Assembly: GCA_964621835.1 (NCBI GenBank)
Contig: CAZUMA010000003.1
Location: 1,727 to 65,726, forward strand
Reading direction: 5' to 3'
Length of the DNA: 64,000 nt
From: an uncultured Anaerolineales bacterium
Lineage (GTDB): Bacteria > Chloroflexota > Anaerolineae > Anaerolineales > UBA11858
The notes beneath the pieces were generated by a model. It was not told the origin of the DNA and ran no database searches. It worked only from the letters and a program-made list of their open reading frames with translations. The position numbers and the translations under genes were made by a program. Positions 8,070-43,763 of the stretch are shown here, piece by piece. How positions within the stretch are numbered: the stretch's first letter is position 1; every line of letters begins with the position of its first letter.

Positions 8070-8095
8070 AAAAAACGGGCCGAGAAGTTCTGCCA

Positions 8096-19967: not shown

Positions 19968-22511
19968 GTGGCCACAAAAATGAGGTTCTCCAAAAAGTCA
20001 AGGAAAGGACAGAGCATGGTGGAATTTGCCATGGTTTTTCCCCTTCTCCTGATGGTGCTTTTAGGGATCATTGAATTCGGGCGTTTTTTCTTTGTCTATT
20101 CCTCTGTGGTATCTGCAACAAGGGAAGCCGCCCGGTATGGAGCAGCGATCCAGGATGTCGGCGGTGGGATTGCCCAATATGAAGACTGCCAGGGAATCCG
20201 GGACGCAGCTGTCCGGGTTGGAGGAGTTGCAGGGATCTCAGAAAATGACGTTGAGATCAAATATGCTGATTCAACGGGAATATACTCAACTTCCTGTCCT
20301 CCTTCCCAGGAAGTCCGCCAGGAGGACCGGATTATCGTTTCCATTTCTACGGTCGTCAGTCCCCTGGTTCCCATCGTGGATATCCCCCCGATCCCTGTGG
20401 AAATGGCCAGCAACCGGACCATCCTGAAAGAGATTGCCCTGGGCAGGAGCGGAACCGGGGCGGGCGCCATCGCCGGGTCCATCACCGATGTAAATTTTAA
20501 GACCACTGCGCAAACTGCCGAGGAAACCAAAGGGACGCTCTCCGTGGACCTGGTTCTCAACCAGGTGATCGCCGACGATGTCACCGTCCCCTTTTCAGTC
20601 ACGGGAACCGCGGTGGATGGCACGGACTACAACATCACCAGCAGTCCCGTGGTCATTCCAGCAGGCTCGCAAAGCACAAAAGTTTATATCAGCCTCATCC
20701 ATGATGGCATCGATGAAGGGGCAGAATCCCTGGTCATCGGGATTGGAAATCCAACCAATGCCACCAAAGGTCCCCAGAACATTCACACGATCACAATCCA
20801 GGATCCCCCCAAGGTGAACTTTTCTGAGATCTCCTGCACAAAAAACGAGAACTCAGGAAGTACAGGGGTGATGCTGGAACTTTCCAAAGCCTCGTCTCAG
20901 GATATCACCGTCCCCTACAGCTTCAGCGGCAGTGCTTTCTGGGGCGCCACAGCGGATTATATAACCGGTCCAAACCCGATTGTCATCCCCGCTGGCTCCC
21001 TCACCCAGATGATTAATGTCACCATCCATGATGACCTCATCGATGAATATGATGAAGTGGCTACTCTTCAGCTGGAAACCCCAACCAACGCTCTGCTGGG
21101 TGGGCAGACAACCCACAGCCTGACCATTCTGGATGATGATGCGCCGCCAGAAGTGATGTTTTACTTACCCGCCCTGACCATTTCAGAAGAGGTGGGTGTT
21201 TTCACAACAACCCTCAAGCTCAGCAGCATTTCAGCGAAAGAAATCCAGCTTCCCTATATCCTCTCGGGGACCACGACCGAGGAAGATTATAACGTTCACC
21301 AACCCTCGCCGCTGACAATCCCACCTGGAAATCAGACAGTCGATCTCAGCTTTGACATTCTGGAAGGAGATGGATGGGAAGTAGATGAAACCCTGATCAT
21401 TGATCTTGACACCCCGGTGAACGCCACGAAAGGTGTCCCGGGGACCCAAACGGTGACCATTACCGAGGATACACTGATCCCAGATGTGTCCTTTGAACAG
21501 TCCTATTCCAGTGTGCTGGAGGATGGCGGCAGGCAAACGATCGGAGTGAGTTTGAGCAACGGGTGGTTTGATGACATCACAGCTCATTACTCCCTCGCGG
21601 GCACAGCGAGTGAGGGGGTCGGGGGAGATTATTTCATCGCCGCCAGCCCGCTGGTAATCCCTTCGGGTTTTCTCCGGGGAGAAATCACGCTTGATCTGGT
21701 GGATGACATTATCTCTGAGGATGATGAAACGATCACAATCACGATTAACTCAGTTGAAAACGGGAATTTGGGTGAGGCACTCAACCACACCATGACGATT
21801 GGAGATAACGACCCGATTCCGGAAGTCTCCTTTAGTACACCGCAGCAGTCCGTCACCGAAGGAAATACAACCGTCAATATCCATGTCAATCTGTCTGCCC
21901 CTTCCTCAAAAACAATCGCGGTCCCCTTTTCATTCGCCGGATCTGCAAGCGCAGGCTATGATTACAGTCCAGCTACCACTGAACTGAGTCTTGCCCCGGG
22001 AGTCACCAGCGATGTCCTGACTGTGGATATATTGGATGACGCGCTCTATGATCCTGACGAGACCGTCCTGATCAGCATTGGCTTACCAACCAATGCAATT
22101 CTCGGGGAAGTATCTGAACACACCATTAAGATCAACGACGATGAACTGCCCCCCTGCGATGTCAAAGATTCCTTACTCACTGTGGGAACCTCTTCCATCA
22201 CCTGGACGATCCGTAACGCCGGGCAGGAGGTCACCTTTACAGGCGGCAGTGTCACCTGGCCTGAAGCCACAAATGGCAAGCCCCGCCTGGCCAATATCTA
22301 TTTTTCTGGCGCAGAAGTGTACAGTGGAAACGATAAACCCACCAGCGTGAGCTACGCCGCAAGTGAGGTATTCCCATCAGAATCAGACGCTAATTTGGGG
22401 CTTGTGTTTTCAGAAGCGATGGGAGTGGGCCAGCACACCCTGGTGGCAACCTTCCAGAATGCTCAATCCGGCGATAGCTGCTCCCTGACCAAAACCTACA
22501 ATAAGCACTAA
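19968..22511 (+). CDS. TadE-like pseudopilin N-terminus fused to five Calx-beta domains and a 117-aa C-terminal domain
   Basis: N-terminus KG|QSMVEFAMVFPLLLMVLLGIIEFGRFFF...REAARYGA (TadE-like). Five repeats of about 105-115 aa each end in a Calx-beta-like block, e.g. VTIHDDLIDEYDEVATLQLETPTNALLG. Start is GTG 19968 (AAGGTG upstream) or ATG 19980. Confidence 0.8.
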   Translation: MATKMRFSKKSRKGQSMVEFAMVFPLLLMVLLGIIEFGRFFFVYSSVVSATREAARYGAAIQDVGGGIAQYEDCQGIRDAAVRVGGVAGISENDVEIKYADSTGIYSTSCPPSQEVRQEDRIIVSISTVVSPLVPIVDIPPIPVEMASNRTILKEIALGRSGTGAGAIAGSITDVNFKTTAQTAEETKGTLSVDLVLNQVIADDVTVPFSVTGTAVDGTDYNITSSPVVIPAGSQSTKVYISLIHDGIDEGAESLVIGIGNPTNATKGPQNIHTITIQDPPKVNFSEISCTKNENSGSTGVMLELSKASSQDITVPYSFSGSAFWGATADYITGPNPIVIPAGSLTQMINVTIHDDLIDEYDEVATLQLETPTNALLGGQTTHSLTILDDDAPPEVMFYLPALTISEEVGVFTTTLKLSSISAKEIQLPYILSGTTTEEDYNVHQPSPLTIPPGNQTVDLSFDILEGDGWEVDETLIIDLDTPVNATKGVPGTQTVTITEDTLIPDVSFEQSYSSVLEDGGRQTIGVSLSNGWFDDITAHYSLAGTASEGVGGDYFIAASPLVIPSGFLRGEITLDLVDDIISEDDETITITINSVENGNLGEALNHTMTIGDNDPIPEVSFSTPQQSVTEGNTTVNIHVNLSAPSSKTIAVPFSFAGSASAGYDYSPATTELSLAPGVTSDVLTVDILDDALYDPDETVLISIGLPTNAILGEVSEHTIKINDDELPPCDVKDSLLTVGTSSITWTIRNAGQEVTFTGGSVTWPEATNGKPRLANIYFSGAEVYSGNDKPTSVSYAASEVFPSESDANLGLVFSEAMGVGQHTLVATFQNAQSGDSCSLTKTYNKH
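20484..22157 (+). repeat. Protein-level tandem array of five diverged Calx-beta-type domains inside the 19968-22511 CDS
   Basis: Recurring pattern (D)ITVPFS..G(T/S)A..G.DY......(V/L)(V/T)IP(A/P)G.......(I/V).(I/L).DD...(D/E).DE(T/V)..(I/L).(I/L)..P.NA..G seen five times. Confidence 0.75.
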
Positions 22512-22523
22512 GGACCTTGAAGC

Positions 22524-22982
22524 ATGCATCAAAAAACGCGCAATGACGAGAGGGGACAGAGTCTAACAGAATTTTCGATGTGCCTGGTCTTCCTGTTGGT
22601 CTTGCTCGCGGGTGTGGCTGATTTCGGCCGGGCATACTTTTCTTATATCATCATCCGGGATGCAGCCCAAGAAGGCGCAGTTTATGGGGCAATTACAGAG
22701 AAGAGCAATATTTCTGATTTCAAAAATCGGGTTGAGCAGCGGGTCAGAACAGCGTTCATCGATCCAGCGGATCCGGATAAAATCCCAATTGATGTTGATG
22801 TCCTTTCTGTAACCACAGATATCATTGGCAGTCCCTGTGCCGGCGTTGGAAACAGCGTCCGGGTCACGGTTGATTATTCTGTTCCTATTGCCACCCCATT
22901 TCTGGGGACGGTGCTGGGAACCCAAGAAATCCTCATGAGCACAAGCATTGAAGACACAACCCTTTATCCAATATGTCCCTAG
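22524..22982 (+). CDS. TadE/TadF-like pseudopilin
   Basis: N-terminus RG|QSLTEFSMCLVFLLVLLAGVADFGRAYF...RDAAQEGAVYGA; 152 aa. Confidence 0.8.
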   Translation: MHQKTRNDERGQSLTEFSMCLVFLLVLLAGVADFGRAYFSYIIIRDAAQEGAVYGAITEKSNISDFKNRVEQRVRTAFIDPADPDKIPIDVDVLSVTTDIIGSPCAGVGNSVRVTVDYSVPIATPFLGTVLGTQEILMSTSIEDTTLYPICP

Positions 22983-23016
22983 AAAATAACCAGGTCTTCA
23001 GTAGGAACCAAAAGAT

Positions 23017-24330
23017 ATGAATCAATATAATCAATCAGAACGAGGCCAGGTCCTTGTTTTCCTTGCTTTGGTCCTGGTGGTGCTGCTCGGTTTTGCTGCG
23101 TTAGCCATCGATGGAGGGATGCTGTATTCGGATCGACGTCACGCCCAGAACGCTGCTGACTCCTCCTCATTAGCGGGCGCTAACGCTGCGGCCATCTTCA
23201 TGACCAACTACGCGGTAAATTACAATGCTTTTGTCTGTGGAACCAGCGGTACTTATCATACTGGACAGGCGGCGATTAATGCTGGCATTGACCGTGCGCA
23301 AAGCAATGATTATATTCTTGACAGTGACACCAGCGACCATCACGGTGTGACCGCCGAATGCGGCATTAATGATCATGGAAGTTATTTGGAAAAATATATT
23401 GATGTGGTGACTGATATTACCCGGGAAACGAAAACTAATTTTGCCCACCTGGTATATGATGGCCCCCTGGTCAGTGAAGTAGAAGCCGTGGCCAGGGTGT
23501 ATCCCCCGATGCCGCTTGCCTATGGTCATGCCATCGTGGCCCTTAACACAGATGCTTGCTCTGGGAACCAGAATGGTGTGATCTTTTCTGGAAGCAGCAC
23601 AACCACGGTCACAGGGGGGGGTGTCTGGTCAAACGGCTGCTTAACGGGAAATGGGACCAGTTTTAATGTCACCGTTAATGATGGCGGTGTTGGCTTCGCT
23701 GGTTCCTCAACCGGGACGCTTTCCAACATCAATCCCGCCCCAAACTATATCCCCTTTCCTCTCCCATCCCACTCCTCTGAGGTCCCCCCTCCTGATTGCT
23801 CCGGACTCCCTGCTGAGAGCGCTCCCAATGCCGGGTCGGCAACGATTGCTCCGGGGGTCTATGACCACATCAAATGGACCAATGGGGATCTCACCCTGCA
23901 GCCGGGTTTATACTGTATCACCGGTAAGAAAGGCTTCTCGGCTAACGGCGGTGAGCTGTACGGGGACGGGGTGACGATATACCTGATTGGCGGAGGTATG
24001 ACCATCAATGGGAATGTGTCCCCTGTTGATTTGAGAGCTCCGGAGGAATCCCCCGATCCCGCTCCAGCTGTCCCGGGAATCCTCGTCTATATGGCCCAGG
24101 GCAACACGGATACGATCAGTCTGACAGGAAACAGCACATCATTTTATCTGGGCGCAATCTATGCACCCGATGGAGAAATATTCGCCTCAGGATCAAGTGG
24201 AACCAGTCCCACTTTTAACACCCAGCTGATTGGCAATAATGTCGAAGTCAGTGGTGGTGCAACGATCGACATCAACTTCAACGACGATGAGAATTATGAA
24301 AAGCCTCCTTACTTGAATTTGCAAAAATAA
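23017..24330 (+). CDS. TadG-like pilus-assembly protein (Tad N-terminal domain plus a Gly/Ser/Thr-rich beta-rich C-terminal region)
   Basis: ERGQVLVFLALVLVVLLGFAALAIDGGMLYSDRRHAQNAADSSSLAGA matches the TadG/Tad N-terminal pattern. Confidence 0.75.
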   Translation: MNQYNQSERGQVLVFLALVLVVLLGFAALAIDGGMLYSDRRHAQNAADSSSLAGANAAAIFMTNYAVNYNAFVCGTSGTYHTGQAAINAGIDRAQSNDYILDSDTSDHHGVTAECGINDHGSYLEKYIDVVTDITRETKTNFAHLVYDGPLVSEVEAVARVYPPMPLAYGHAIVALNTDACSGNQNGVIFSGSSTTTVTGGGVWSNGCLTGNGTSFNVTVNDGGVGFAGSSTGTLSNINPAPNYIPFPLPSHSSEVPPPDCSGLPAESAPNAGSATIAPGVYDHIKWTNGDLTLQPGLYCITGKKGFSANGGELYGDGVTIYLIGGGMTINGNVSPVDLRAPEESPDPAPAVPGILVYMAQGNTDTISLTGNSTSFYLGAIYAPDGEIFASGSSGTSPTFNTQLIGNNVEVSGGATIDINFNDDENYEKPPYLNLQK

Positions 24331-24482
24331 ATACACAAAACCTTTTCCGTCCCCAGATACATCCCCTCCAAACCGGTTGATCTGTCGTGAGCGCAGCACG
24401 CTCCCGTCGTATTCCTCCTTTACAAAACAACAAGGAATACGATATAGTATTGTGTAATTGGTATTTATTAAGGGAGTTGAGT

Positions 24483-24926
24483 ATGAAAAACAAAATGGTT
24501 TTCTTGATTGCGATCCTCTTGATCTCCCTGTCCCTCGCTGCCTGTGGCGCCCCCACTGAACCAGAGCCTGCTGAACCAACAGCAGAAACAGAACCGGCAG
24601 TAGAGGAAGAAACAGAGGTTGAGGTTGAGCCTGTGGAAGAGGCTGAAACAGAGGAAGAGCAGGATGCCGAGCCGGAAGAAGAGTCGGAACCTGTGGCAGC
24701 GATCGACGGGGCCGCTATTTATGCCAGCAACTGTGCGGGCTGCCATGGAGCGGATCGGTCCGGTAATAACGGTCCTGCCCTGCTGCCAGATCGCCTTTCC
24801 CCGGATGCCGCGGTGCATGTCGAGATCATCACCAACGGCCGTGGGGGGATGCCCGCCTTCAGCGACCGATTGACCGCGGAAGAAATTGACGCTGTGGTCA
24901 GCTTTATCCTCACGGAACCTGAATAG
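24483..24926 (+). CDS. Lipoprotein class-I c-type cytochrome with an acidic E/P-rich linker
   Basis: Lipobox LSLAAC|G, a long EPxxE linker, one CxxCH (CAGCHG) and a distal GGMPAF (Met ligand). Start trimmed to the ATG at 24483 after AAGGGAG. Confidence 0.8.
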   Translation: MKNKMVFLIAILLISLSLAACGAPTEPEPAEPTAETEPAVEEETEVEVEPVEEAETEEEQDAEPEEESEPVAAIDGAAIYASNCAGCHGADRSGNNGPALLPDRLSPDAAVHVEIITNGRGGMPAFSDRLTAEEIDAVVSFILTEPE

Positions 24927-25016
24927 TCAGTATATCAAGGGACCATCAGCAGCATCTGATATACTAGGGGATGTGAGCTAAACCTAAAAAGAAAAAATCA
25001 CCAAAGGAGTGGATAC

Positions 25017-25373
25017 ATGTCAGAAGAAATTGTCAACACCTCTCCAACCGGAGAAGAAATTACCAGTGATGATAAGTTGTGGGCTGCCCTCAGCTGGATC
25101 CCTTATGTAGGATGGATTCTGGCCATCATCGCCCTGCTCGTTGAGCCCCAGAAAAACCGGGCCTTTGTTCGTTTCCACGCTGTGCAAGCGCTCGGCGCCA
25201 GCGTGATTTTAGGGGTCATCAGCATCGTGCTGGGCTTTACCGTCATCCTGGCCTGCATCGCCCCCTTCCTGTACCTGATTACAATTTATCCAGCCATCAA
25301 GGCGTACCAGGGAGAATGGTTAGAAATCCCCTGGCTGACCGAGTTCTGCAAAGACCAGGGCTGGATCTCCTAA
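25017..25373 (+). CDS. Small membrane protein, DUF4870-like
   Basis: DKLWAALSWIPYVGWILAIIALLVEPQKNRAFVRFHAVQAL plus 2-3 TM segments; AAAGGAG RBS. Confidence 0.55.
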   Translation: MSEEIVNTSPTGEEITSDDKLWAALSWIPYVGWILAIIALLVEPQKNRAFVRFHAVQALGASVILGVISIVLGFTVILACIAPFLYLITIYPAIKAYQGEWLEIPWLTEFCKDQGWIS

Positions 25374-25395
25374 GATCATCTCTTTATCAACCATA

Positions 25396-25428
25396 AAACA
25401 ACCCTTCTCTCGTTGAGAAGGGTTGTTT
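25396..25428. terminator. Bidirectional intrinsic terminator between the convergent DUF4870 and FHA genes
   Basis: Perfect 14-bp stem AAACAACCCTTCTC / GAGAAGGGTTGTTT with loop TCGTT, flanked by A/T runs on both sides. Confidence 0.8.
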
Positions 25429-25498
25429 GGTTCCAGGATACGCGACCTGCTAACTAAGGAAATTCGGGTCCCCAATTCAGCGCTGGCTCAGGAAGCTT

Positions 25499-26080
25499 TC
25501 AACCAGATGTTCTTTCCTTCACCATGGTGACATCGTCCTCAAATCCGGCTGTGTTGGAAACCTCACCCGTTGAGTCTATTGTCGCTTTTTTCTGTCTGAC
25601 CGGAGTATATATTAAGGTTGCAGTATCGCCCAATTGAACCTTGTCTCCATAAACCAGCGGCCCAGGGGTTGATTTGAGCTTTTCCCCATTCAGATACGTG
25701 CCAAAGCGTGAGCCAAGATCATGAAGAAGGCTTTGATTATTCAATTGGGTAATTTTGGCATGGGAGCGGGAGACTGAGGCTTCCTTAAGAAGGACATCAT
25801 TGTCTCCGGCTCTCCCAAGATACGTCGGGAGGCTGAACACCGGAAATTCCTTCCCCAGCTGGCTTGCAAACTCGCTGTGGATCACAATCAGTTTACCAAC
25901 AACTGCTCTTTCCTTCTTTCCCTTGTTGTTTTGTACAGATTTTTGTCTTCCTGTGACCATTGCTCTCGTTCCTCTTGGGTTGACTGTCAATTTTTTATTC
26001 CGGGATGACAGGTCGGCAAATTTATTTTTTGCACTTACCGTCCATTGATCAATTATTTCTATAATTCTTTCAAAAACCAT
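25499..26080 (-). CDS. FHA domain-containing protein
   Basis: YLGRAGDNDVLLKEASVSRSHAKI...DLGSRFGTYLNGEKL...GDKVQLGD is a canonical FHA core. The start is uncertain. Confidence 0.8.
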   Translation of the reverse strand: MVFERIIEIIDQWTVSAKNKFADLSSRNKKLTVNPRGTRAMVTGRQKSVQNNKGKKERAVVGKLIVIHSEFASQLGKEFPVFSLPTYLGRAGDNDVLLKEASVSRSHAKITQLNNQSLLHDLGSRFGTYLNGEKLKSTPGPLVYGDKVQLGDTATLIYTPVRQKKATIDSTGEVSNTAGFEDDVTMVKERTSG

Positions 26081-26447: not shown

Positions 26448-27656
26448 ATGACAGCTCAAATTCTTATTGCGGATGACGAACGAAGCTCTCGTGAGCTCAT
26501 CTCCAATTCTCTGAAAACCAAGGGGTATGAATCCATCGTTTTTGAGTCCGGCAAGAGCCTCCTGGATGAAATTGACCAATATGATCCTGGTCTGATTATC
26601 TTGGATGTGATGATGCCTGACCTGAATGGTTACCAGGTCTGCAAGCTTTTAAGGGAAAGGGAAAGCACCAAACACACCCCGGTGATTATCGTCACAGCCA
26701 TGGAATCCTTAGAAAGCAAGATGAAAGGGTTTGAAGCAGGGGCGGACGATTACCTTACCAAGCCATTTGAGGTCAAAGAATTGCAAGCCCGGGTTGAAGT
26801 CTGGCTGCGGAGAGCCATGGCTGCCACGGTCAGTGACGAACTCCTGGAAAGCAAATCCCTGGCTATCTATTCCCTGCGGGGAGGCATTGGTGTCTCCTCA
26901 ATTGCCGCCAATCTCTCCGCAGGATTAGCAGAAATCTGGAACCTTCCCACTGCATTAATCGATCTCTCGATGGTTTCTGGACACAGCGCCCTGTTAATGA
27001 ACACCCCGATTGTCCATTCCTGGACAGATCTCGCCGGCTTTCCCCTTGAAGATGTCACCTTGGATGTTCTAAATCAGGTCATGCTTACCCACCCAAGCGG
27101 GGTCCGGATTCTTGCCGCCCCAAAAGATCCCCAGGACGCTGAAAGGATCTCTCCAGATCTAGTTACCCGGGTTCTCAATCTTCTCGATAAACAATATCAT
27201 TACCTGGTCTTTGATCTCCCCCATAATTTCAACAGCTTCACCCTGGGCGGACTGGATTTTGCAGATCAAATCATCTATGTCCTGGCCCCTGAACTGGCTG
27301 CCATCCGGTCCACCTCTATCGCTCTCAATGTTTTTTCAGACCTGGAGTATCCAGCCAGCAAAGTGTTCCTGCTGCTGAATTGGGTTTTTGAACGCCGCGG
27401 CTTAGCAAAAGAGGACATCGAGAAAGCACTGGGGCAAAAAGTAGATTTGGTGCTTCCATATCTGGGCCAAGAACTTGTGACCGCGATTAATTTGGGCCGT
27501 CCTCCGGTTCTGGAAAAACCCGATGAAACCATCGGTTCACTGTTTGAGGATTTAGCCTTTTATTTCAGTAAAAAGGAACACCGTCAGAAAAAACCTGATC
27601 AACCAACAGAAGCATATATGCGGATTTTTAACAGGTACAAGAACAGGAAAAAATAA
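26448..27656 (+). CDS. Response-regulator receiver fused to a CpaE/TadZ-type (MinD/ParA-fold) pilus-assembly domain with a degenerate Walker A
   Basis: Canonical REC residues are present (ADDE, ILDVMMPD, VTA, TKPF). The MinD/ParA-like domain has LRGGIGVSS (26874-26900) in place of KGGxGK[ST], plus LVFDLP and VLAPEL. Confidence 0.8.
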   Translation: MTAQILIADDERSSRELISNSLKTKGYESIVFESGKSLLDEIDQYDPGLIILDVMMPDLNGYQVCKLLRERESTKHTPVIIVTAMESLESKMKGFEAGADDYLTKPFEVKELQARVEVWLRRAMAATVSDELLESKSLAIYSLRGGIGVSSIAANLSAGLAEIWNLPTALIDLSMVSGHSALLMNTPIVHSWTDLAGFPLEDVTLDVLNQVMLTHPSGVRILAAPKDPQDAERISPDLVTRVLNLLDKQYHYLVFDLPHNFNSFTLGGLDFADQIIYVLAPELAAIRSTSIALNVFSDLEYPASKVFLLLNWVFERRGLAKEDIEKALGQKVDLVLPYLGQELVTAINLGRPPVLEKPDETIGSLFEDLAFYFSKKEHRQKKPDQPTEAYMRIFNRYKNRKK

Positions 27657-27673
27657 AATTTTCCGGATCAGTT

Positions 27674-28108
27674 TCAATCTAAAGGTATCTGGGTGGTAGT
27701 GTACTGAATGATCCCCACATCGAAAGTTTCCCCCGCTTGCAGCTGATATGGAAATTGAAAAGCCATTTCCCCATAGCCAACCAACAGCATTACATTCCCT
27801 GGCGGCAGTCCAGTCAGGGTAAATTCACCAGCAGCGTTCGCGTTTGTTCTGAGCTCTGTTCCCAATACCATCACTTCAGCTGGGACCGGTTGTTGAAACT
27901 CGTCAACCACTTTTCCAGTTATTGACGCCGTTCCCCTCCGGGGGGATTGATTCCTGCTGGTCACAAATGTGACCAGGAACAAACCTGTAATAGCCGCAAG
28001 TAAAAGATAAATGGCAATTCTTGCTCCAGAGGGGTTATGTTGTCTTTGGCTACCTGCTTGAAGTCCAGCTTGAAAGTCCTCTAAGGACGGTGAATCCTGT
28101 AAGCTCAT
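27674..28108 (-). CDS. Single-pass membrane protein with a carboxypeptidase-regulatory-like (prealbumin-fold) domain
   Basis: One TM segment (IAIYLLLAAITGLFLVTFV) followed by ITGKVVDEFQQPVPAEVMVLGTELRTNANAAGEFTLTGLPPGN. Confidence 0.55.
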   Translation of the reverse strand: MSLQDSPSLEDFQAGLQAGSQRQHNPSGARIAIYLLLAAITGLFLVTFVTSRNQSPRRGTASITGKVVDEFQQPVPAEVMVLGTELRTNANAAGEFTLTGLPPGNVMLLVGYGEMAFQFPYQLQAGETFDVGIIQYTTTQIPLD

Positions 28109-28116
28109 CCTCGCTC

Positions 28117-28788
28117 CTAATGCCTAGAGACAGAAATCCTCTCAATACAAAGATGTGAATTACCCCATACACGAACCCCAACCCCACCGGATTGATAAGA
28201 ATCGTCGGTCACAGAAAGAACTTCCTCTCCATCGATAAAGGCGGTGAATGTATCCCCCGAAATATGGATTTTGACAGCTCTTGGGCTGCTGTACCAATCA
28301 TAATCATGGGGAGCGTACTCCCGGGCAATCGGAGGGAGCTCATAACCATTGACCCATTTTCTGAACAAGAAAGCTCCTGATCCGTACCCCGGATCATATT
28401 GAAAATTGTACCCGTCAAACCCGCTCTTGTCTCTTTGTGTCCTAAAAAACAACCCATACCCCATACCCTGCGTGAGATGAGCCTGGCTGACCTGGACTGT
28501 GTAGTCTTCCCCAAAAAAATCATTGGCAAAGAAATAACCCCAGTTTTGACAGCAAACTCTCCCTCCCTCCTCCGTGCAATTGCCTTTATAAACTTCCCAA
28601 TCCAGCAGATCCTGATCACAGGCGTCTACTCCGATTTCTGACATGATCTGGCAGTAAACCCCTCTCAGGTCAACGCCGGCAGCAGAGAGTGCCCCCACCA
28701 GAAAAACACTCGCAAGAAGAAGTATCAACCCATATTCCAGGAGACTCTGTCCTGATGGATAGATGCTGATTTTCTTCCCTTTATTCAT
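28117..28788 (-). CDS. Flp-type prepilin-like N-terminus fused to a ConA-like lectin/glucanase-fold (DUF1080-like) domain
   Basis: N-terminus MNKGKKISIYPSG|QSLLEYGLILLLASVFLVGAL fits the G/xxxxEY Flp motif. The C-terminal ~160 aa (GYGLFFRTQ...GYNFQYDP...AFIDGEEV...GGVGVRVWGNSHLCIERISV) resembles DUF1080/LamG-type folds. Confidence 0.55.
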   Translation of the reverse strand: MNKGKKISIYPSGQSLLEYGLILLLASVFLVGALSAAGVDLRGVYCQIMSEIGVDACDQDLLDWEVYKGNCTEEGGRVCCQNWGYFFANDFFGEDYTVQVSQAHLTQGMGYGLFFRTQRDKSGFDGYNFQYDPGYGSGAFLFRKWVNGYELPPIAREYAPHDYDWYSSPRAVKIHISGDTFTAFIDGEEVLSVTDDSYQSGGVGVRVWGNSHLCIERISVSRH

Positions 28789-28817
28789 ACCTCTCCCAAG
28801 CCGGTAATCTTGCTGAT

Positions 28818-29186
28818 TTATTGAAGAACTTGTTTTAATTTTTCTTCCAGCTTCAGATACTCAGTTTTAATTTCAGGAATCCTTTGCGCGATTTGCTCTA
28901 ACAACCCATCCCTGCCCAGTTTCTCCAACTCATAAGCGTGAGCGCTGAGTTTCGTTCCCCCAACATTTGCGGCAGCTCCTTTGATGCTGTGGGAGATCCG
29001 CGTCGCAGACTCGGGATTCCGGCTTTCAACTGCTTTGCTCAGCTCTTCAATCAGGTTTGGTGTATCATCGATGAATATGTCCACAACAGCTGCAATCAGC
29101 TCCTGGTCATTCCCAAGGCGGTGATATAAATCAGCTTCATCAAATACTGCGGATTCGTCTTTAGTCAGGTTTGTTTGGGGATCCAT
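28818..29186 (-). CDS. Histidine phosphotransfer (Hpt) protein
   Basis: HSIKGAAANVGG phospho-His motif in a ~120-aa helical protein. Overlaps the 3' end of the kinase gene by 22 nt. Confidence 0.85.
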   Translation of the reverse strand: MDPQTNLTKDESAVFDEADLYHRLGNDQELIAAVVDIFIDDTPNLIEELSKAVESRNPESATRISHSIKGAAANVGGTKLSAHAYELEKLGRDGLLEQIAQRIPEIKTEYLKLEEKLKQVLQ

Positions 29187-31462
29187 TTTTCAAGCACCTT
29201 TGCTAATTCTTTCGGTTGGATTGGTTTTGATATGTAGTCATTCATGCCTGCTTCCAAACACCGTTCTCGATCTCCCTCCATGGCATGAGCAGTCAAGGCG
29301 ACAACTGGAATCCCGTGGTTGATCGCTTTCTGATCAAATTTCCGGATTTCCTCGGTGGCTTTCAAACCATCCATCTCCGGCATTTGCACATCCATCAAGA
29401 CCAAATCAAAATGGGATCCTCCCAGCGCTTCTAAGACCTCGAGGCCATTTTCAACAGGGTGGACAGTGAGGTCAAATTTACTGAGCATGGCCAGGGCAAC
29501 CTTGCGATTCACCAGATTGTCCTCCGCCAGGAGGATCCGGCTTGTTTCAGGACGGTTGGAGAATGGAGTGTATTCAGTAAAAAACCGGACCTCACCCGGA
29601 TCTTCTGCTCCGCTCTCTTGACTGAGAACCGCCCCAATCATGTCCACCAGTTTTCGCTGCTTTACCGGTTTGGTGAGGTAGCCTGCTGCCCCCATGTCTT
29701 GAAGCTGGGCAGCATCCATCCGCCTTCCCATGGAGGTGAGGATGATCACCTTGAGATCCCTGCCAACCGGATCGGACTTAACCCGCTTTAGGCACTCCAC
29801 ACCATCCATCCCCGGCATCTGCATATCCAGCAGAACGATCCGGTAAGGATCTCCTGACTGTTCAGCTTCCTGGAGGATGGAAACTGTTTGTTTACAGCAA
29901 TCGATGACATCAATCCGGGCATAATGTTTTGTCAGGGTTTTTTCCAGCAGCAGACGGTTTGTCGGATTATCATCGATGCCCAGAATTCTGACCCCCCGAA
30001 GGGGAATTGGCATTGACCGGTAGCTTCCCCGGGTAAGTTTTTCAAAAACAGCAGTAAACCAGAATGTGCTGCCTTTGCCAAACTCACTTTCCAGGCCAAT
30101 CTCCCCACCCATCATGGCGGATAACTGGGAAGAGATTGCTAATCCCAACCCTGTTCCCCCAAACTGCCTGGTTGTCGATCCATCCGCCTGCTGAAACCGG
30201 TTAAATATGGCTTCTTGGCGGTCTGCAGGCACTCCGATTCCTGTATCGTTGACGATGAACTTTAGTTTAATAGCTAGGTCAGTTTCTTCGATTGGCTCAA
30301 CCCGGATGCAGATCTCTCCCTGATCCGTAAATTTCACGGCGTTGCCGGTCAGGTTTACCAAAATTTGTCTCAATCGACCGGGATCTCCGACCAGCCGGGA
30401 GGGGAGATCTGGATTGAGATAGCTGGTCATCTCCAATCCCTTTTCTTCCGCCCGCAGGGCAAGCGTATGGGCAACGCTTTCTACAGTTTGGAAGAGGTCG
30501 AACTCTATCTCCTCCAGACCCAGATGGCCGGCTTCAATTTTTGAGTAGTCCAGAATATCATTGATAATTCCCAGCAAGGCTTCTGCGCTGGATTGGGCGG
30601 TGGTCAAGAATTCACGCTGCTCCGCTGTCAAATCCGTGTCCAGGGTGAGTTCAATCATTCCCATGATGCCGTTCATCGGAGTTCGAATTTCATGGCTCAT
30701 ATTCGCCAGGAACTCACTTTTTGCTTCATCGGCCTCTTCGGCATCTTTTTTGGCCTTCAGCAGGTCGGTCACATCATGGTAAATCCCCAACAAACCCTTC
30801 TGTTCTCCAGCAATCGCAATAGGAACACCCAATATTTTGACATCGATGCCCTGTCCATCTTTTCGTTTTCGTCTGTCAATCCCTTCAATCATCTCCCCAG
30901 CAGATACCCTGGCGGTGTATTCTTCCGCTTGAGCACTTGAATCATCAAATGTGATCAAATTGTCCAGTTTCTTCCCAATCAGTTCATCCTCCTGGTAGAG
31001 GAACAGCTCTTCAAAGGCAGGATTCACAGATTGAACTCTATAAGATGGATCAAGGACTACAATTGCTGCAGGACTGTGATCAAATAGCGACTCAAAATAC
31101 AGCTTTTCAAGCTCAAGCTCATGACGGGTCTGATTGATTTCTTTGACACGGTCCTCCACCCGGGATTCCAATTCCTGATTGATTTCTTCCAAGTGCTCAT
31201 ATTGAGCTCCGATGATCACGCCTGCTCCCCCTAAAAATACTGGCGCGCTCCCAATCACCCAATGTAGAGGTTGGGAGACTATCAATTCCACCACTGTGCG
31301 CAAAGTAAAGGGAACCTGGTGGATCCATAATACATCCAGCAGAATGCTGAAAACTGGAAAGAATACGCCAAACATCCAACCGTAGTGAAAGTATCTGGAG
31401 CGGAACCCTGCTTTAAGATCAACTGTATCCATCATTTCCTCATTTAGCTCCTGATCAGCCAA
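29165..31462 (-). CDS. Hybrid sensor histidine kinase (TM - PAS - HisKA - HATPase_c - REC - REC)
   Basis: H-box MSHEIRTPMNGI, N/G boxes (LTGNAVKFT, DTGIGV, GGTGLGL) and two receivers with DD...D...K residues. The start is uncertain (TTG 31462 or ATG 31435/31432). Confidence 0.9.
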   Translation of the reverse strand: MADQELNEEMMDTVDLKAGFRSRYFHYGWMFGVFFPVFSILLDVLWIHQVPFTLRTVVELIVSQPLHWVIGSAPVFLGGAGVIIGAQYEHLEEINQELESRVEDRVKEINQTRHELELEKLYFESLFDHSPAAIVVLDPSYRVQSVNPAFEELFLYQEDELIGKKLDNLITFDDSSAQAEEYTARVSAGEMIEGIDRRKRKDGQGIDVKILGVPIAIAGEQKGLLGIYHDVTDLLKAKKDAEEADEAKSEFLANMSHEIRTPMNGIMGMIELTLDTDLTAEQREFLTTAQSSAEALLGIINDILDYSKIEAGHLGLEEIEFDLFQTVESVAHTLALRAEEKGLEMTSYLNPDLPSRLVGDPGRLRQILVNLTGNAVKFTDQGEICIRVEPIEETDLAIKLKFIVNDTGIGVPADRQEAIFNRFQQADGSTTRQFGGTGLGLAISSQLSAMMGGEIGLESEFGKGSTFWFTAVFEKLTRGSYRSMPIPLRGVRILGIDDNPTNRLLLEKTLTKHYARIDVIDCCKQTVSILQEAEQSGDPYRIVLLDMQMPGMDGVECLKRVKSDPVGRDLKVIILTSMGRRMDAAQLQDMGAAGYLTKPVKQRKLVDMIGAVLSQESGAEDPGEVRFFTEYTPFSNRPETSRILLAEDNLVNRKVALAMLSKFDLTVHPVENGLEVLEALGGSHFDLVLMDVQMPEMDGLKATEEIRKFDQKAINHGIPVVALTAHAMEGDRERCLEAGMNDYISKPIQPKELAKVLEKWIPKQT

Positions 31463-31481
31463 AACATCCTACCTGCTCCCC

Positions 31482-31937
31482 TTAATCAGGTGGGGAGGGG
31501 ATCTCCACTCCTTGAAGCTCTTCAGGCAGGGGAGGTTCAGTCGGGGTGGGGGGTGCGGGAAAGGTCTCCACCTGATCCGGATCTGGAGGAATTTCATCTC
31601 CCCCGGAAACAGCCTGGATGGTTGGCGTTGGCAGGAGGGACTGATTTGCTGGCACTGATAGGACCTGGGTTGGGGGGCCTCCTGCAAAAACACGGACTTC
31701 AGGAGCAGCGGCTTCCTTTTGAATAAACCAGAAGTCCACCGCTGTGATGATCCCCAACAACACAATTAACCCGCGGATCAGCCAGGCTTTCCGGTGGCCC
31801 CCAATGACCTTCGGTGACCAGCCTGATTGGGAGATCTGCGGGGCAGAACTATCCTCCTGTTCGGCTTTTTCGCGTAGAAATGCTAAGGGATCCTCAGCTT
31901 CTGGTGATTGTTCCGGATTGAAGTTTTGATTTGTCAT
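31482..31937 (-). CDS. Hypothetical single-pass membrane protein with a proline-rich ectodomain
   Basis: One TM segment (LIRGLIVLLGIITAVDFWF) and a P/T/E-rich tail. Packed within the operon, 8 nt after the upstream stop. Confidence 0.45.
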   Translation of the reverse strand: MTNQNFNPEQSPEAEDPLAFLREKAEQEDSSAPQISQSGWSPKVIGGHRKAWLIRGLIVLLGIITAVDFWFIQKEAAAPEVRVFAGGPPTQVLSVPANQSLLPTPTIQAVSGGDEIPPDPDQVETFPAPPTPTEPPLPEELQGVEIPSPPD

Positions 31938-31945
31938 AGATGCCT

Positions 31946-33376
31946 CTACCGTCGACTCAGCTTAATTGATATTTGCTCTGTATTCTGGGGATTGAATACC
32001 GAAGACCATTTGTACTGATAACCATAGCTGGGATAAGCCAGGATGCGGTACCTTCCTGGGGAGAGCTGAAAAGCTGCCAGACCATCACTAGATGACCTCT
32101 TCCACTGCAGAAAGCGATAGTACGGTCCATCGAGTGAATATACAAGAAGATAACAATCGGGCACGGGGTCGTTTCGGTTATCAGTAACCTGGACGGTGAC
32201 CTGCCTGGGACCAACACTTATGATCAGGGATTGTGTCTGGGGAACAGATAAATATCCTGACCAGTAGCTTCTTCCCGCATAGTCAGCACGGAATTGGTAG
32301 TCTCCATCCAACAAAGAGAAGGTAGCAATCCCTGCAGAATCGGTTTGCAAAGACTTTCCTAAATACCCTCTTTCGGAGTTAAAAAGATGCACCGGGATTC
32401 CGGATATGCCACCCCCAGTATAATCCTCCACCTTAACCGCCACCCGGTACGGTCCCACCTCAATTCTTGTTGAACTGCTGGGGGGGATGCTGACCGTGGA
32501 AGACCAGTAGGATCTGCCGTGTGAATCGGCTCTGAATTGATACCGTCCCTGGTTTAGATCAATTTCTACAGATCCTCTCTCATTTGTTTGCGCGCTTTTA
32601 CCCAAGAACTGACCATCGGCATTAAAAGCATGAACAGCAACACCCACAGCAGGTTCTCCCTGGCGATTGACAACATTCACCCTGAAGGAAACCAAATCAA
32701 TTTCTATCCTCACCGATGATTGTTCAGGGAACATGACGACATCGGATGCATAGTCTTGACCCTGGTAATTTGCGCGAATGATGTAGCTGCCTTCCACAAG
32801 ATCCAGTGTGGTAGTTCCTGTGCTCGTTGTCCCAGTCACCCCTACGTAAGCTCCAGAGGGTTTATATGCAGACACCCCCACCCCTGGAATTCCTTCCCCA
32901 TTGGGATTGACAACCTCCACCAGCAGGGGGCCTTGTCCGGTTTGGATTTGTGTGGAGGTCATTCCCGGCACATAAGCCACCTCTGACCAGAACTCTTTTT
33001 GTTGATAATCAGCCCGGAAGGAATATTCCCCTGGTTCTAATTCCAAAAACTGGGCCCACCCCTGATCATCTGTTTGAATTTGTTCCTCTAAATACTGTCC
33101 ACTTTGATCAAAAATGGAAACAGGGACTTGAGCGATCCCCTCATCATTCAAATCAACCACCTGGACGCTGAGATCAGAATAAACGGGGGTGCCAAGCATA
33201 TCCGGAGTGGGTGTATTTCGTTGAAATGCTGAGACACTTTCCCGGTATAAATCGCCGGCTCCACCCCCCAAAAGGAGCAGTGTACTCACAATCGCAGCGG
33301 TGAGAAAGAACACCAAAACTATATATTCAACCAGACCCTGTCCGGATTCCTGCCTAATAGTATTCCAAGGTTTCAT
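31946..33376 (-). CDS. Flp-type prepilin-like N-terminus fused to five ~80-aa prealbumin/carboxypeptidase-regulatory-like repeats
   Basis: N-terminus MKPWNTIRQESG|QGLVEYIVLVFFLTAAIV fits G/xxxxEY. Five repeats each end in Y(S/I/Q/R)(F/I)(R/L)A(D/N/Y)...(Y/F)WS; AAGGATG RBS region. Confidence 0.6.
   Translation of the reverse strand: MKPWNTIRQESGQGLVEYIVLVFFLTAAIVSTLLLLGGGAGDLYRESVSAFQRNTPTPDMLGTPVYSDLSVQVVDLNDEGIAQVPVSIFDQSGQYLEEQIQTDDQGWAQFLELEPGEYSFRADYQQKEFWSEVAYVPGMTSTQIQTGQGPLLVEVVNPNGEGIPGVGVSAYKPSGAYVGVTGTTSTGTTTLDLVEGSYIIRANYQGQDYASDVVMFPEQSSVRIEIDLVSFRVNVVNRQGEPAVGVAVHAFNADGQFLGKSAQTNERGSVEIDLNQGRYQFRADSHGRSYWSSTVSIPPSSSTRIEVGPYRVAVKVEDYTGGGISGIPVHLFNSERGYLGKSLQTDSAGIATFSLLDGDYQFRADYAGRSYWSGYLSVPQTQSLIISVGPRQVTVQVTDNRNDPVPDCYLLVYSLDGPYYRFLQWKRSSSDGLAAFQLSPGRYRILAYPSYGYQYKWSSVFNPQNTEQISIKLSRR
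31955..33172 (-). repeat. Protein-level tandem array of five diverged ~80-aa beta-sandwich repeats inside the 31946-33376 CDS
   Basis: Repeat landmarks: GEYSFRADYQQKEFWS, GSYIIRANYQGQDYAS, GRYQFRADSHGRSYWS, GDYQFRADYAGRSYWS, GRYRILAYPSYGYQYKWS. Confidence 0.7.
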
Positions 33377-33856
33377 GGTTCTTCATCCTTCGATTCCTTC
33401 TGAGCCCAAAGTGTTGAACTGCTGCTAATATTTTTAGGTTATGCCGGAAAAAACTGGAGCTGACCAGGGTATTCTTGAGATCCAATTCTTTAAGGCTGAT
33501 CGTGTTTGGTTTGTCCCATTATATTTTAGATAAGATAAAAAACGATTCCTCCTTTCTTGATTGAAAGGCTTCTGATAGTGCATCCCTGACTACCTATCAA
33601 TTCTGAAACCAGAAAATGCGTCAGCGAGGCCTGGTGAGGGGCTGGGAGGAGGAGAAAACCGGGATGTGCTGATTGATCCAGCAAGACAAACCATCATCCC
33701 TGATGGCTGCTTCCGGTCAATGGATTAGGAAAATTGATTGTTTCTAATAGAGCAATTGGTCCAAAAAATAGACCAAAGGGATCTTAATTATCAAGATATG
33801 AAGAAACAATTGATCCGACCCTCATCCTCGAACCATATCCCCCCTGAGAGAGCAAT

Positions 33857-35440
33857 TTATTCGTTCGGTTGGGCTCTGTTCAGGTCCGCATGTAGTGTGA
33901 ATGATTGATCAGCAAATCTCAGTTGATCTCCATCCTGGAGCAGGTGGGCGTGATTGATCTCCAGGGGGTAATCATTCACCAGCGTTCCATTCTTACTGCC
34001 CAAATCAGTCAGAAGCAGCTCTCCTTTTTCCAGCTTGAAAAGCGCGTGACTCCGGGATACCTTGGTGCTGCGCAGCTGGAGGTCTGCCTCTTTACTTCGA
34101 CCAATGATGATTATCTCCTTCTTTAAAGGAATCTCCCGCCCCTCCTCATCAACCAACGTCCAGGTGGTATTCAGACTGAGTCGGGGGATCCGATCCACTT
34201 CAGACCACTCCTCAAGCTCTCCCGTAAATGCCAGTCCAATTCCCCGAACAATGATTTCTTCAGGATGATTGGGGAGGAATATTTTTTCTGATCCAAACCG
34301 GGCCTGAAGATCCTGAACCAAACTTGACAGGTGGAATCCCCCGCCGATCAGGATCACTCTGCCCACATCCGTCTCTGACAGGTTCATCGCCGCTAAAGCC
34401 CGGGAGATCAGCTGCTGAAATTTTTGATCCAGGTTGCGGCAGATGTTTTCAAAATGCTGCCGGCCTATCTTGATGTGATTCCGAAAAACCTGTTCATCCT
34501 GGGTAACCAGGGTGAACATGCGTTCTACAATCACATCCCCATGAGTGCCCTGATCCCGGATCTGCTGACTGATCGATTCTTTCAGCTCCTGGCCCAGCAA
34601 ACGCAAGGTGACAAAGGCAGCAGGATCAGCTTCCAGTGCTTTCGGGGTGATTTCCAGGGTATCCCGGAGGTGCTTGGCAATCACCGCATCGTACAACCCC
34701 CCCCCAAAGGGCTCTTGATAAATATCGACATTCAGCAAATTCCCGGTTTCCGGATCAAATTTCCTGGCATATATTGTCGTTTTGCTCCCGCCAACATCAA
34801 TGATCAGGTTGAACTCCCTGGTGTGCAGTTTCTGCAGCAATCCCTGGTGCTGGAGGCCCAGCAGCACCCCCTCCGATTCAGGGACAAAATGAACCTGTTC
34901 GTAAAGTTCCGGGGGAAAGGAGTCCAGCACAATATGGGAAAAATCATCAAATAGCGTTCCGTGATGCTCTTTCTGCCAGTGATCAGGAAAAGAAAATGTG
35001 AAGTGAACCTGTTCATCAAAGGGAGTCTGATGTTTTTCTTCCTGGATTTGCTGAATGACAGTTTTCAACAGCAACCGTGTGTAAAGCAGTGCCTGAAAAT
35101 GACTGTAGCGCTTTTGATGCGGCAGGGGTTCTTTCAAAAGGTGGGTCCCAATGGAAGGTTTAAAAAACTCCCGCACCCGGTTTCGGATGGTTTCGTCTTC
35201 AACATGCCCCAGGGAGGCTTCTCCCACGGCCACGACATCCGACCCATCTTCAGTCAGGGTCAGCACAGCTGGTAACCGCTGGTCGATGAAATTGGACAGA
35301 GGCGAGGAGAGCGGGCTGGTGACATGCTTGGCCCCTTCCTCGCCAAAATGATATTCCAACCTGTAGAGCCGCCAGTTTACGGCCCCACAGTCCAGTGCAT
35401 AAAGAGTGGTCGTGCTGTTTTGATCCATAGACCCTATCAT
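33857..35440 (-). CDS. Hsp70/actin-fold ATPase domain fused to a C-terminal FHA domain
   Basis: Sugar-kinase/Hsp70/actin phosphate-1-like YALDCGAVNWRL, phosphate-2-like IIDVGGSKTTIY and adenosine-like VILIGGGFHLSSL, then FHA IIIGRSKEADLQLRSTKVSRSHA...DLGSKNGTLVN. Confidence 0.7.
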   Translation of the reverse strand: MIGSMDQNSTTTLYALDCGAVNWRLYRLEYHFGEEGAKHVTSPLSSPLSNFIDQRLPAVLTLTEDGSDVVAVGEASLGHVEDETIRNRVREFFKPSIGTHLLKEPLPHQKRYSHFQALLYTRLLLKTVIQQIQEEKHQTPFDEQVHFTFSFPDHWQKEHHGTLFDDFSHIVLDSFPPELYEQVHFVPESEGVLLGLQHQGLLQKLHTREFNLIIDVGGSKTTIYARKFDPETGNLLNVDIYQEPFGGGLYDAVIAKHLRDTLEITPKALEADPAAFVTLRLLGQELKESISQQIRDQGTHGDVIVERMFTLVTQDEQVFRNHIKIGRQHFENICRNLDQKFQQLISRALAAMNLSETDVGRVILIGGGFHLSSLVQDLQARFGSEKIFLPNHPEEIIVRGIGLAFTGELEEWSEVDRIPRLSLNTTWTLVDEEGREIPLKKEIIIIGRSKEADLQLRSTKVSRSHALFKLEKGELLLTDLGSKNGTLVNDYPLEINHAHLLQDGDQLRFADQSFTLHADLNRAQPNE

Positions 35441-42769: not shown

Positions 42770-42810
42770 TTGAAGGAAAGGATCCACCGCTGGAGGCTGG
42801 CCATCAAGAA

Positions 42811-43695: not shown

Positions 43696-43763
43696 AGTTT
43701 GGGATGGCGCGGGAACCCCGGCGCCGCTCTCTTTTCCCCACACGATCTGTTATCATTAGGGCG

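Follow-up and report, generated by a model that had tools for sequence, protein, structure and literature searches.

Two separately conserved, motor-less modules of a probable Tad/Flp pilus, one with predicted modular Flp-type pilins and a His-Asp phosphorelay, in an uncultured Anaerolineales bacterium

Tad (Flp, type IVc) pili are held to drive adhesion and the formation of flocs and granules by filamentous Chloroflexota in wastewater and sediment communities, and to our knowledge neither the regulation of these pili nor their adhesins have been studied in this phylum. Within Tad systems, TadE, TadF and TadG usually act as pseudopilins, a typical Flp pilin has about 45-80 aa (the solved Tad/Flp pilins have 45 aa), and the receiver of the ATPase TadZ is atypical and lacks phospho-acceptor chemistry. 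We analysed a 64-kb stretch of DNA (the window; contig CAZUMA010000003.1 of assembly GCA_964621835.1) from an uncultured Anaerolineales bacterium, about 15 kb of which an initial annotation, made from the sequence alone, had described as one Tad-like pilin and adhesin locus wired to a phosphorelay and to FHA modules. Our findings suggest that this region is probably a mosaic, in which two accessory modules of a type IVc pilus, each conserved on its own and neither with a motor, stand among unrelated neighbours: module 1 (19968-24330), a tadE-tadE-tadG operon, and module 2 (26448-33376), formed by a receiver-ATPase fusion (REC-ATPase) and a six-gene operon with a phosphorelay and two large Flp-type pilins. 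Our confidence is much higher for this anatomy and for the synteny than for the full mechanistic reading, towards which we lean.

Several described systems resemble parts of this region. TadZ/CpaE of the tad/cpa loci (Aggregatibacter, Caulobacter; Eubacterium rectale, structure 3FKQ) joins a receiver-fold N-terminal domain to a MinD/ParA-type ATPase domain. Its Walker A motif follows the consensus K/RGGXGXS/T (quoted in bioRxiv 10.64898/2026.07.08.737194), and, as cited in bioRxiv 10.64898/2026.07.08.737194 and PMC13170226, its receiver is normally atypical and its gene normally lies beside tadA/cpaF. In Caulobacter, CpaE dimers ring the CpaF motor with their receiver domains in mutual contact (PMC13170226). 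Two-component signalling is tied to Tad/Flp pili in Pseudomonas aeruginosa (PprAB, Flp pili) and in Caulobacter (PleC/PodJ-CpaE, with input converging on CpaE), and acts there through transcription (PprB) or through localisation partners. We know of no earlier case in which His-Asp signalling acts post-translationally on the positional or hub ATPase of a machine that builds type IV filaments. For type IVa filaments the existence of modular pilins is established: Streptococcus sanguinis PilC and PilB combine a short pilin module bearing a class III signal with a grafted lectin and vWA module, respectively (PMC9934059, PMC8179133); the published survey of such pilins used IPR012902 and mentions neither Tad nor Flp (PMC9934059, PMC8179133). 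Finally, Tad components dispersed amid FHA and kinase genes occur in Myxococcus xanthus Kil and in the Bdellovibrio Tad system (PMC8460266; bioRxiv 10.64898/2026.07.08.737194).

All non-overlapping open reading frames (ORFs) of at least 130 aa, which together tile the window, were scanned with Pfam, and every domain named in the initial annotation was recovered (Table 1). The REC-ATPase carries a canonical receiver. D10, D53, T83, K105 and the motif SLRGGxG are invariant in 26 homologues, the residues V149-S150 that follow the motif are at least 90% conserved among them, and the mean column identity of the alignment is 64%. The Walker A sequence, RGGIGVSS, has no P-loop lysine and agrees with the consensus for TadZ. 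Also conserved is a basic helix at the C-terminus, similar to the amphipathic helix of CpaE. In an AlphaFold2 (AF2) model with a predicted local distance difference test (pLDDT) value of 88, the ATPase half superposes on ParA-family 3EA0 and on MinD (Foldseek, target template-modelling score 0.85-0.89) and the receiver half on the phosphorylatable receivers RR468 and PhoB (0.95). Of the entries in the top 50 Foldseek matches that combine a receiver with a MinD/ParA-type ATPase, TadZ 3FKQ alone is aligned over both domains (378 columns). The protein has more than 3000 homologues; those listed with a source name come from Chloroflexota (Anaerolineae, Roseiflexaceae), the listed ones have about 402 aa and 45-55% identity, one relative reaching 75%, and many carry the JGI label 'CpaE'. 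The architecture and the atypical Walker A motif are thus those of TadZ/CpaE, as is the neighbourhood of Flp-type prepilin genes, whereas the receiver is not of the atypical, non-phosphorylatable kind, no tadA/cpaF gene is adjacent, and the protein is linked to a dedicated hybrid kinase and Hpt protein. The two-domain match and the Walker A motif have to be set against a sequence nearer to MinD/ParA and a failure to reach any curated NCBIfam threshold, and we therefore call the protein TadZ-like, not a proven TadZ; its canonical receiver sets it apart.

The six genes of the minus-strand operon (27674-33376) are separated by gaps of 8-29 nt, with one overlap of 22 nt. Scans for promoter and terminator consensus sequences gave counts close to those in shuffled sequences (22 vs 17.4 and 20 vs 19.5) and were uninformative on operon boundaries. 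The operon encodes the remaining parts of a His-Asp phosphorelay in which every relay motif is intact: the H-box SHEIRTP and the receiver motifs DMQMPGMDG and DVQMPEMDG of the hybrid kinase, HSIKG of the Hpt protein, and LDVMMPD of the terminal receiver in the REC-ATPase. The kinase has its transmembrane helices at residues 27-51 and 66-86, joined by a short loop. The claim of a complete phosphorelay with a REC-TadZ/CpaE-like ATPase beside pilin genes is therefore borne out by the Pfam domains and these motifs.

The operon also encodes two proteins of 223 and 476 aa. In both, a predicted cleavage-site glycine is followed by XXXXE[YF] and a hydrophobic helix, as in a class III signal, and both exceed the small mature size of Flp pilins, the pilin module being followed by a lectin or by beta-sandwich modules. 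Some 45 orthologues of the 223-aa protein (25-71% identity) retain G/Q[GS]xxEY and, behind it, a run of about 20 hydrophobic residues, E18 is invariant in a 46-sequence alignment of this family, and the Flp motif of the 476-aa protein is kept in its orthologues at two related loci, L002 and L089. Searched against the PDB, the profile of the 223-aa family aligns, over its positions 14-51, with 8U1K, a Caulobacter Tad pilin of 45 residues (E=1e-3), and with the Flp pilin 8U2B (E=4e-3), and over positions 65-228 with the CBM66 domain of Bacillus subtilis levanase (4B1M, E=2.3e-14). The AF2 model of the 223-aa protein (pLDDT 92) has N-terminal helices at residues 16-36 and 41-51 followed by a beta-sandwich, for which CBM66 is the top Foldseek match (E=7e-10, target template-modelling score 0.78-0.81). 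The 3keto-disac_hyd/DUF1080 domain scores weakly on the window sequence (E=4e-4) and is found in most homologues; three homologues have a precomputed Flp_Fap domain (PF04964), and the JGI names in use are 'Flp pilin' or 'fructan beta-fructosidase'. In the 476-aa protein, five repeats are recognised by a recurring FRADY...YWS motif. Because the motif is conserved, the profile matches Tad/Flp pilins and the model is confident, we regard both proteins as predicted modular pilins, an Flp module with a grafted lectin or Ig-like stalk, in agreement with the oversized pilins of the initial annotation.

These proteins differ from PilC and PilB of S. sanguinis in that their carrier is of the Flp/Tad type (type IVc), with G/XXXXEY, and not of the IPR012902 N-methylation type, and in that the lectin, of ConA-like fold, is CBM66/DUF1080-like; lectin and stalk are presumably displayed at the filament tip. 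The CBM66 domain of the levanase SacC (4AZZ/4B1M) is the best match, by profile and by fold, for residues 58-222 of the 223-aa protein. The identity is about 21%, and the domain is joined here to a pilin helix and not to a glycoside hydrolase. It is predicted to bind glycans. At another related locus, L125, the lectin pilin gene (7544-8203) is followed at a distance of about 550 bp, beyond the gene for the CarboxypepD_reg (CPD) protein, by a 53-codon stop-to-stop frame (8756-8914, +). The N-terminus encoded by this frame almost equals that of the lectin pilin (GQGLIEYGLIIGL...), so the frame may represent either a short Flp pilin in its own right or a duplicate that has been truncated.

To learn about the conservation of module 2, we compared 87 related loci; in 18 of them the sequence extends for 9 kb or more on each side. 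A full-length REC-ATPase query on genome contigs matched unrelated response regulators through the generic receiver and gave L007 as the only full-length relative; metagenome contigs were scanned with the ATPase half alone, which yielded 80 further loci, and the window's proteins were searched by blastp against the ORFs of the loci. The closest relative (75% identity) keeps the REC-ATPase and an identical six-gene operon, and its genes differ on both sides. In a 3.7-Mb Anaerolineae genome, the genes for the REC-ATPase, lectin pilin, CPD protein, a PAS protein, hybrid kinase and Hpt follow each other on a single strand, and another genome has the order five-repeat pilin, Pro-rich protein, REC-ATPase, kinase. 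The lectin pilin gene lies directly downstream of the REC-ATPase gene in 30 of the 64 loci whose downstream sequence reaches 900 bp or more. Of the 31 loci that extend 2.5 kb or more on each side, 22 have one or several cluster partners (lectin pilin in 16, CPD protein in 14, kinase in 14, Hpt in 11, five-repeat pilin in 1), the kinase orthologues adjoining the REC-ATPase being 40-73% identical. In almost every related locus, the CPD protein follows directly after the lectin pilin. The five-repeat pilin stands beside the REC-ATPase in L002, L089, L154 and L157; the Pro-rich protein, which has no Pfam match, has an orthologue in L002 (59%), and L089 has a similar protein of 158 aa between the five-repeat pilin and the REC-ATPase. 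Module 2 is a Chloroflexota-wide cluster, to which the five-repeat pilin and the Pro-rich protein are added in some genomes. We found no description of the kinase/Hpt/REC-ATPase/pilin cluster in literature searches, in line with the initial annotation, which did not recognise the combination as a described system. In L005 (1-9667; GCA_001050215.2, Anaerolineae), the REC-ATPase cluster lies directly downstream of an integrase and a BREX/Pgl-type defence island, which contains BrxC/PglY, an N6_N4 methyltransferase and a NERD-helicase.

Table 1 Features of the region, grouped by module, with positions in the 64-kb window
Position	Strand	Feature	Evidence
Module 2
26448..27656	+	REC-ATPase (TadZ-like): canonical receiver + MinD/ParA-family ATPase, 402 aa	Pfam Response_reg 104 bits + CBP_BcsQ/AAA_31-type
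27674..28108	-	Bitopic membrane protein (CPD protein): cytoplasmic N-terminal peptide, transmembrane helix, external CarboxypepD_reg	Pfam 36 bits; transmembrane helix 27-52
28117..28788	-	Predicted modular Flp-type prepilin (lectin pilin), 223 aa: G/QSLLEY signal, two-helix module (~14-51), CBM66/DUF1080-like lectin beta-sandwich (58-222)	Motif, profile, model
28818..29186	-	Stand-alone Hpt phosphotransfer protein (HSIKG)	Pfam Hpt 49.8 bits
29165..31462	-	Hybrid histidine kinase, membrane-bound: two transmembrane helices, PAS, HisKA, HATPase, two receivers	Pfam
31482..31937	-	Pro-rich single-pass membrane protein, 151 aa; variable member	Transmembrane helix 50-74
31946..33376	-	Predicted modular Flp-type prepilin (five-repeat pilin; G/QGLVEY), 476 aa, five CarboxypepD_reg/transthyretin-like repeats; variable member	Pfam CarboxypepD_reg 109 bits, 4 stretches
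Module 1
19968..22511	+	TadE-type minor pilin (G/QSMVEF) + five Calx-beta, 847 aa	Pfam TadE 62 bits, Calx-beta 149 bits in 5 stretches
22524..22982	+	TadE-type minor pilin (G/QSLTEF), 152 aa	Pfam TadE 40.5 bits
23017..24330	+	TadG-like protein: Tad N-terminal domain + C-terminal ~380 aa	Pfam Tad 51.3 bits
Neighbouring genes
18055..19471	-	Extracytoplasmic function (ECF) sigma factor + DUF5667 anti-sigma-like protein	Pfam; GC 0.46-0.475
24387..24926	+	Lipoprotein cytochrome c, lipobox LAAC, CAGCH	Pfam
25017..25373	+	DUF4870 membrane protein	Pfam 26.5 bits, just above cut-off
25499..26080	-	FHA-domain protein	Pfam FHA 60.8 bits
33857..35440	-	Hsp70/actin-fold ATPase + C-terminal FHA	Pfam HSP70 39 bits, FHA 66 bits

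From the conserved operon linkage and the intact relay residues we infer which proteins would be relay partners. The membrane-embedded kinase, which has no external domain and a cytoplasmic PAS domain, would autophosphorylate, and the phosphoryl group would pass from its histidine to its own receiver aspartate, to the Hpt histidine and to Asp53 of the TadZ-like ATPase, where the relay would end because the ATPase receiver is the only output-bearing receiver in the operon. Phosphorylation of Asp53 would alter dimerisation or membrane docking of the ATPase and hence its support for a Tad machine; in the position of CpaE, whose dimers touch each other through their receivers around CpaF (PMC13170226), a true receiver could plausibly gate assembly of the machine when phosphorylated. 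The state of the ATPase would then govern the incorporation of the two modular pilins after prepilin cleavage, the CBM66-like lectin pilin and the stalk pilin with its five beta-sandwiches acting as glycan- or surface-binding adhesins. The bitopic CPD protein would be the best candidate for a membrane partner of the ATPase. Its N-terminal peptide carries the motif M-x-F-E-x-SPSL-x-[DE]-[FY] in a 34-sequence alignment, with orthologues in L005 and L092-L169; by analogy with partners of ParA/MinD proteins it is a candidate docking peptide for the ATPase, and the motif as such could be one for docking or for phosphorylation. The kinase may sense a membrane signal, perhaps, by analogy with PilS and PilA, the pool of unassembled pilin in the membrane. 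That such a dedicated hybrid-kinase/Hpt relay phosphorylates the receiver of a TadZ-type ATPase throughout the Chloroflexota, and so switches on Flp pili tipped with a CBM66-like lectin pilin, is a tentative proposal that we think has perhaps one chance in a few of being right.

PprAB and PleC/PodJ work through transcription or localisation partners; in module 2 the TadZ-like ATPase has a receiver of its own, a fusion that would imply direct post-translational control by a four-step relay. If the proposal holds, modular Flp-type pilins with a predicted glycan-binding module would be described here for the first time, and the concept of modular pilins would widen from filaments of type IVa to those of type IVc. 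The switching of the TadZ/CpaE hub would become directly accessible through a TadZ-like protein that is truly phosphorylated on its receiver, and the relay would be a defined four-step one with a plausible terminal acceptor. For annotation, the label 'CpaE' in metagenome-assembled genomes of Chloroflexota may denote a motor-detached REC-ATPase and not a member of a pilus operon.

Several results weigh against a role of these genes in a Tad pilus. No motor, platform protein, major Flp pilin or prepilin peptidase was demonstrated for the source genome in the 64 kb scanned, and the only tie between modules 1 and 2 is adjacency in a single genome. By sequence, the ATPase half is nearer to ParA/MinD (3EA0, E=2e-22; MinD, E=3e-19) than to TadZ 3FKQ, with which its similarity is marginal (E=0.009), and it stays below the curated NCBIfam thresholds (MinD 46 bits vs 202; CpaE_hom_Actino/Ssd 36 bits vs 154). 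The Flp-like N-termini of the window proteins are, taken alone, below threshold in Pfam (Flp_Fap, E=0.14; Class_IIIsignal, E=1.9); the matches to Tad and Flp pilins come from the family profile. Two genomes or more have the lectin pilin and CPD genes at a distance from the REC-ATPase, and in two of these they follow gatB; in one, the pair is 340 kb from the REC-ATPase on the same contig, and in the other no REC-ATPase gene lies within 10 kb upstream or 4 kb downstream of it. The pair is therefore the tightest unit of the cluster. A cpaF-like gene was never found next to the REC-ATPase in the 87 loci, and in several genomes the REC-ATPase gene stands alone among housekeeping genes, so the protein could serve another process.

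Two further observations concern these loci. A LysM + SdrD_B protein is encoded just upstream of the post-gatB pair in L172 (3715-7092 (-), 7155-7982 (-)) and in L173 (7580-8389 (-)), and in L172 a triple-FHA ABC transporter adjoins the pair. Three hits to a T2SSE Walker A regular expression were considered as motor candidates and discarded: they are PriA in L088, an ABC transporter in L128, and in L136 the twin of the L128 ORF.

The strongest alternative, to which we give about as much room as to the Chloroflexota-wide relay itself, though slightly less, is that module 2 is independent of Tad, its REC-MinD-like ATPase being a positional or cell-division-type regulator like MinD or the actinobacterial Ssd/CpaE homologue. 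The relay would then position or regulate surface proteins with a lectin or beta-sandwich part that are anchored in the membrane, and one purpose could be the cohesion of cells within filaments; the Flp-like N-termini would be mere membrane anchors or peptidase substrates. This would suit the better scores of the ATPase half against ParA/MinD, the lack of an adjacent motor gene and the strong conservation of a protein (64% mean column identity) whose gene is often alone among prfA-prmC, rpoC/rho or priA. It is at odds with the Walker A motif, which agrees with the consensus for TadZ and does not have MinD's P-loop Lys-Thr/Ser, and with the fused receiver, which is TadZ architecture. It also has to account for the invariant G/QxxxEY in about 45 orthologues, whose glutamate at +5 is a hallmark of prepilin-peptidase substrates and indicates strong selection, and for an N-terminal profile that matches assembled Tad pilins.

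We return to the reading in which both modules are accessory to a Tad pilus, and to module 1. Its two TadE-type proteins and its TadG-like protein pass the Pfam gathering cut-offs (TadE, PF07811, 62.0 and 40.5 bits, cut-off 22.9; Tad, PF13400, 51.3 bits, cut-off 22.3), which upholds the pseudopilins of the initial annotation. Like canonical TadE/TadF/TadG they form a three-gene operon, and they differ in that the first TadE carries five Calx-beta domains and in that the operon is detached from a motor in this lineage and ancestrally paired with a prepilin peptidase gene, absent from the window. The orthologues of the 847-aa protein in L171 and L170 are 52-56% identical (tblastn), and that in L174 has the same TadE + Calx-beta architecture; the 152-aa TadE is 66% identical to its orthologue in L170. 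Below a top match of 98%, the homologue clusters listed for the TadG-like protein show 64-78% identity, and those with a source name belong to Anaerolineales; conservation is thus far higher than for the REC-ATPase, with its identities of about 45-55%. Its C-terminal 380 residues or so match no Pfam family, and their richness in Gly, Asn, Thr and Ser suggests a beta-helix. Other type 4 filaments are initiated by complexes of minor pilins located at the tip (PMC9934059). By analogy with these, and with the usual pseudopilin role of TadE/F/G, the module 1 proteins would form a filament-initiating complex, with the large Calx-beta array displayed at or near the filament tip.

In all three relatives examined, the order of this operon is Peptidase_A24, TadE + Calx-beta, TadE, TadG, in one conserved housekeeping setting (PEPCK ... 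EPSP synthase ... SAM_HAT), and neither motor genes nor the REC-ATPase cluster lie within 10 kb of it. Compared with a tad locus, which has peptidase and motor alongside, the relatives thus have the peptidase without a motor within 10 kb, and the window has neither. The window instead has an ECF sigma/anti-sigma pair, divergent from the operon, upstream of tadE at the place of the relatives' peptidase gene. Because the operon of the relatives lies elsewhere, behind the peptidase, and the window has the ECF sigma pair instead, the side-by-side position of modules 1 and 2 is a lineage-specific rearrangement. The relatives' peptidase-tadE genes stand in a genomic context different from that of the window's sigma pair, which could be an insertion and might regulate the tadE operon.

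As the initial annotation stated, the Tad motor is not in the window: T2SSE, T2SSF and Peptidase_A24 had no Pfam match among the ORFs that tile it, and tblastn with the relatives' peptidases against the window found no prepilin peptidase. Its statement that no small Flp pilin ORF is present also stands, since a six-frame search of the whole window for G-x4-E-[YF] followed by a hydrophobic run returned no small Flp gene, its only matches being the second TadE and the two large Flp-like proteins. Measured against a canonical tad locus (flp-tadV-rcpCAB-tadZABCDEFG), the 64 kb lack the motor ATPase, the two platform proteins, the major Flp pilin and the peptidase. In this lineage both modules normally go without a motor, which is no peculiarity of the window, and we infer that motor, platform and major pilin are encoded elsewhere, the modules presumably making use of that Tad machine. 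A 317-aa ORF (12411-13364) was considered as a TadB/C-like platform protein and rejected, having no Pfam match and, by eye, no long hydrophobic stretch.

GC content is lower in the region, with a mean of 0.495 inside vs 0.544 for genes outside 18-35.4 kb (Mann-Whitney p=1e-5). The AT-richness of the pilin genes noted by eye is thus real and is not specific to them: it extends over the whole block of 25.5-33.4 kb, whose genes range from 0.447 to 0.491 except for the Pro-rich gene (0.55), and over the ECF sigma pair (Table 1).

The physical adjacency of the genes in the window, the lower GC of the whole block relative to its flanks, and the existence of dispersed, FHA-rich Tad-like systems in Myxococcus (Kil; PMC8460266) and Bdellovibrio would all suit a single surface-filament system of about 15 kb, in which the FHA and Hsp70-FHA proteins feed Ser/Thr-phosphorylation signals into the pilin and phosphorelay genes. 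We consider this unlikely. No homologue (E<1e-5) of the TadE-Calx, TadE, TadG, cytochrome c, DUF4870, FHA or Hsp70-FHA proteins was found within 10 kb of the REC-ATPase cluster in any of the 87 related loci, beyond the five-repeat pilin the relative with 75% identity carries different genes, and the TadE/TadE/TadG operon has a different, housekeeping context in three of three relatives. The initial annotation had named a lack of co-location in related genomes as the result that would speak against it, and taken as a whole the locus is indeed not co-located there; its inclusion of the FHA modules among the system's members finds no conserved linkage either. Moreover, a third FHA gene occurs in the window (58385-59005), and FHA genes are therefore common in the source genome. 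The Kil and Bdellovibrio loci hold motor, platform and secretin genes; here no motor gene appears in the window or in the examined flanks of homologues of either module, and the FHA genes lack conserved linkage. Still less probable is that the cluster is what remains of a tad island, decaying or acquired horizontally, with its motor lost and its pilin-like genes no longer pilins: a GC content about 5 points below the flanks, a prepilin peptidase gone from its ancestral place upstream of tadE and the missing motor would agree with it, but all ORFs are intact and tightly packed, orthologues with invariant functional residues are conserved across Chloroflexota, and the motor-less arrangement is the rule in relatives and no local loss.

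Among the neighbours, the Hsp70-FHA protein was considered as a PilM-like, actin-fold pilus component and rejected for want of synteny and of specific similarity: by sequence it matches in the PDB solely FHA domains and the nucleotide-binding domains of Hsp70/Hsp110, and it is absent at L002 as well. The third FHA protein (72 bits; minus strand) is encoded next to a LytR-CpsA-Psr (LCP) protein (59128-60543, -). The remaining genes of the window are housekeeping genes, among others for L9, PdxS/T, Gmk, Tmk, a ClpB-like protein, S1, MetK, DnaN and a cobalt energy-coupling factor transporter. The plus-strand genes at 41630-46340 encode a MoxR/ChlI-like AAA ATPase, a VWA protein and, after these, an SbcC/Rad50-like protein of 878 aa, and the AT skew at 44-46 kb is very high (0.35). 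An unusual protein of 520 aa (10844-12406, -) unites three domains: a P-loop ATPase resembling SpoIIIAA, a phosphotyrosine-phosphatase-like domain and R3H. About 135 nt at the beginning of its ORF are shared with the ORF for thymidylate kinase, and the start codon of one or the other was probably called too early.

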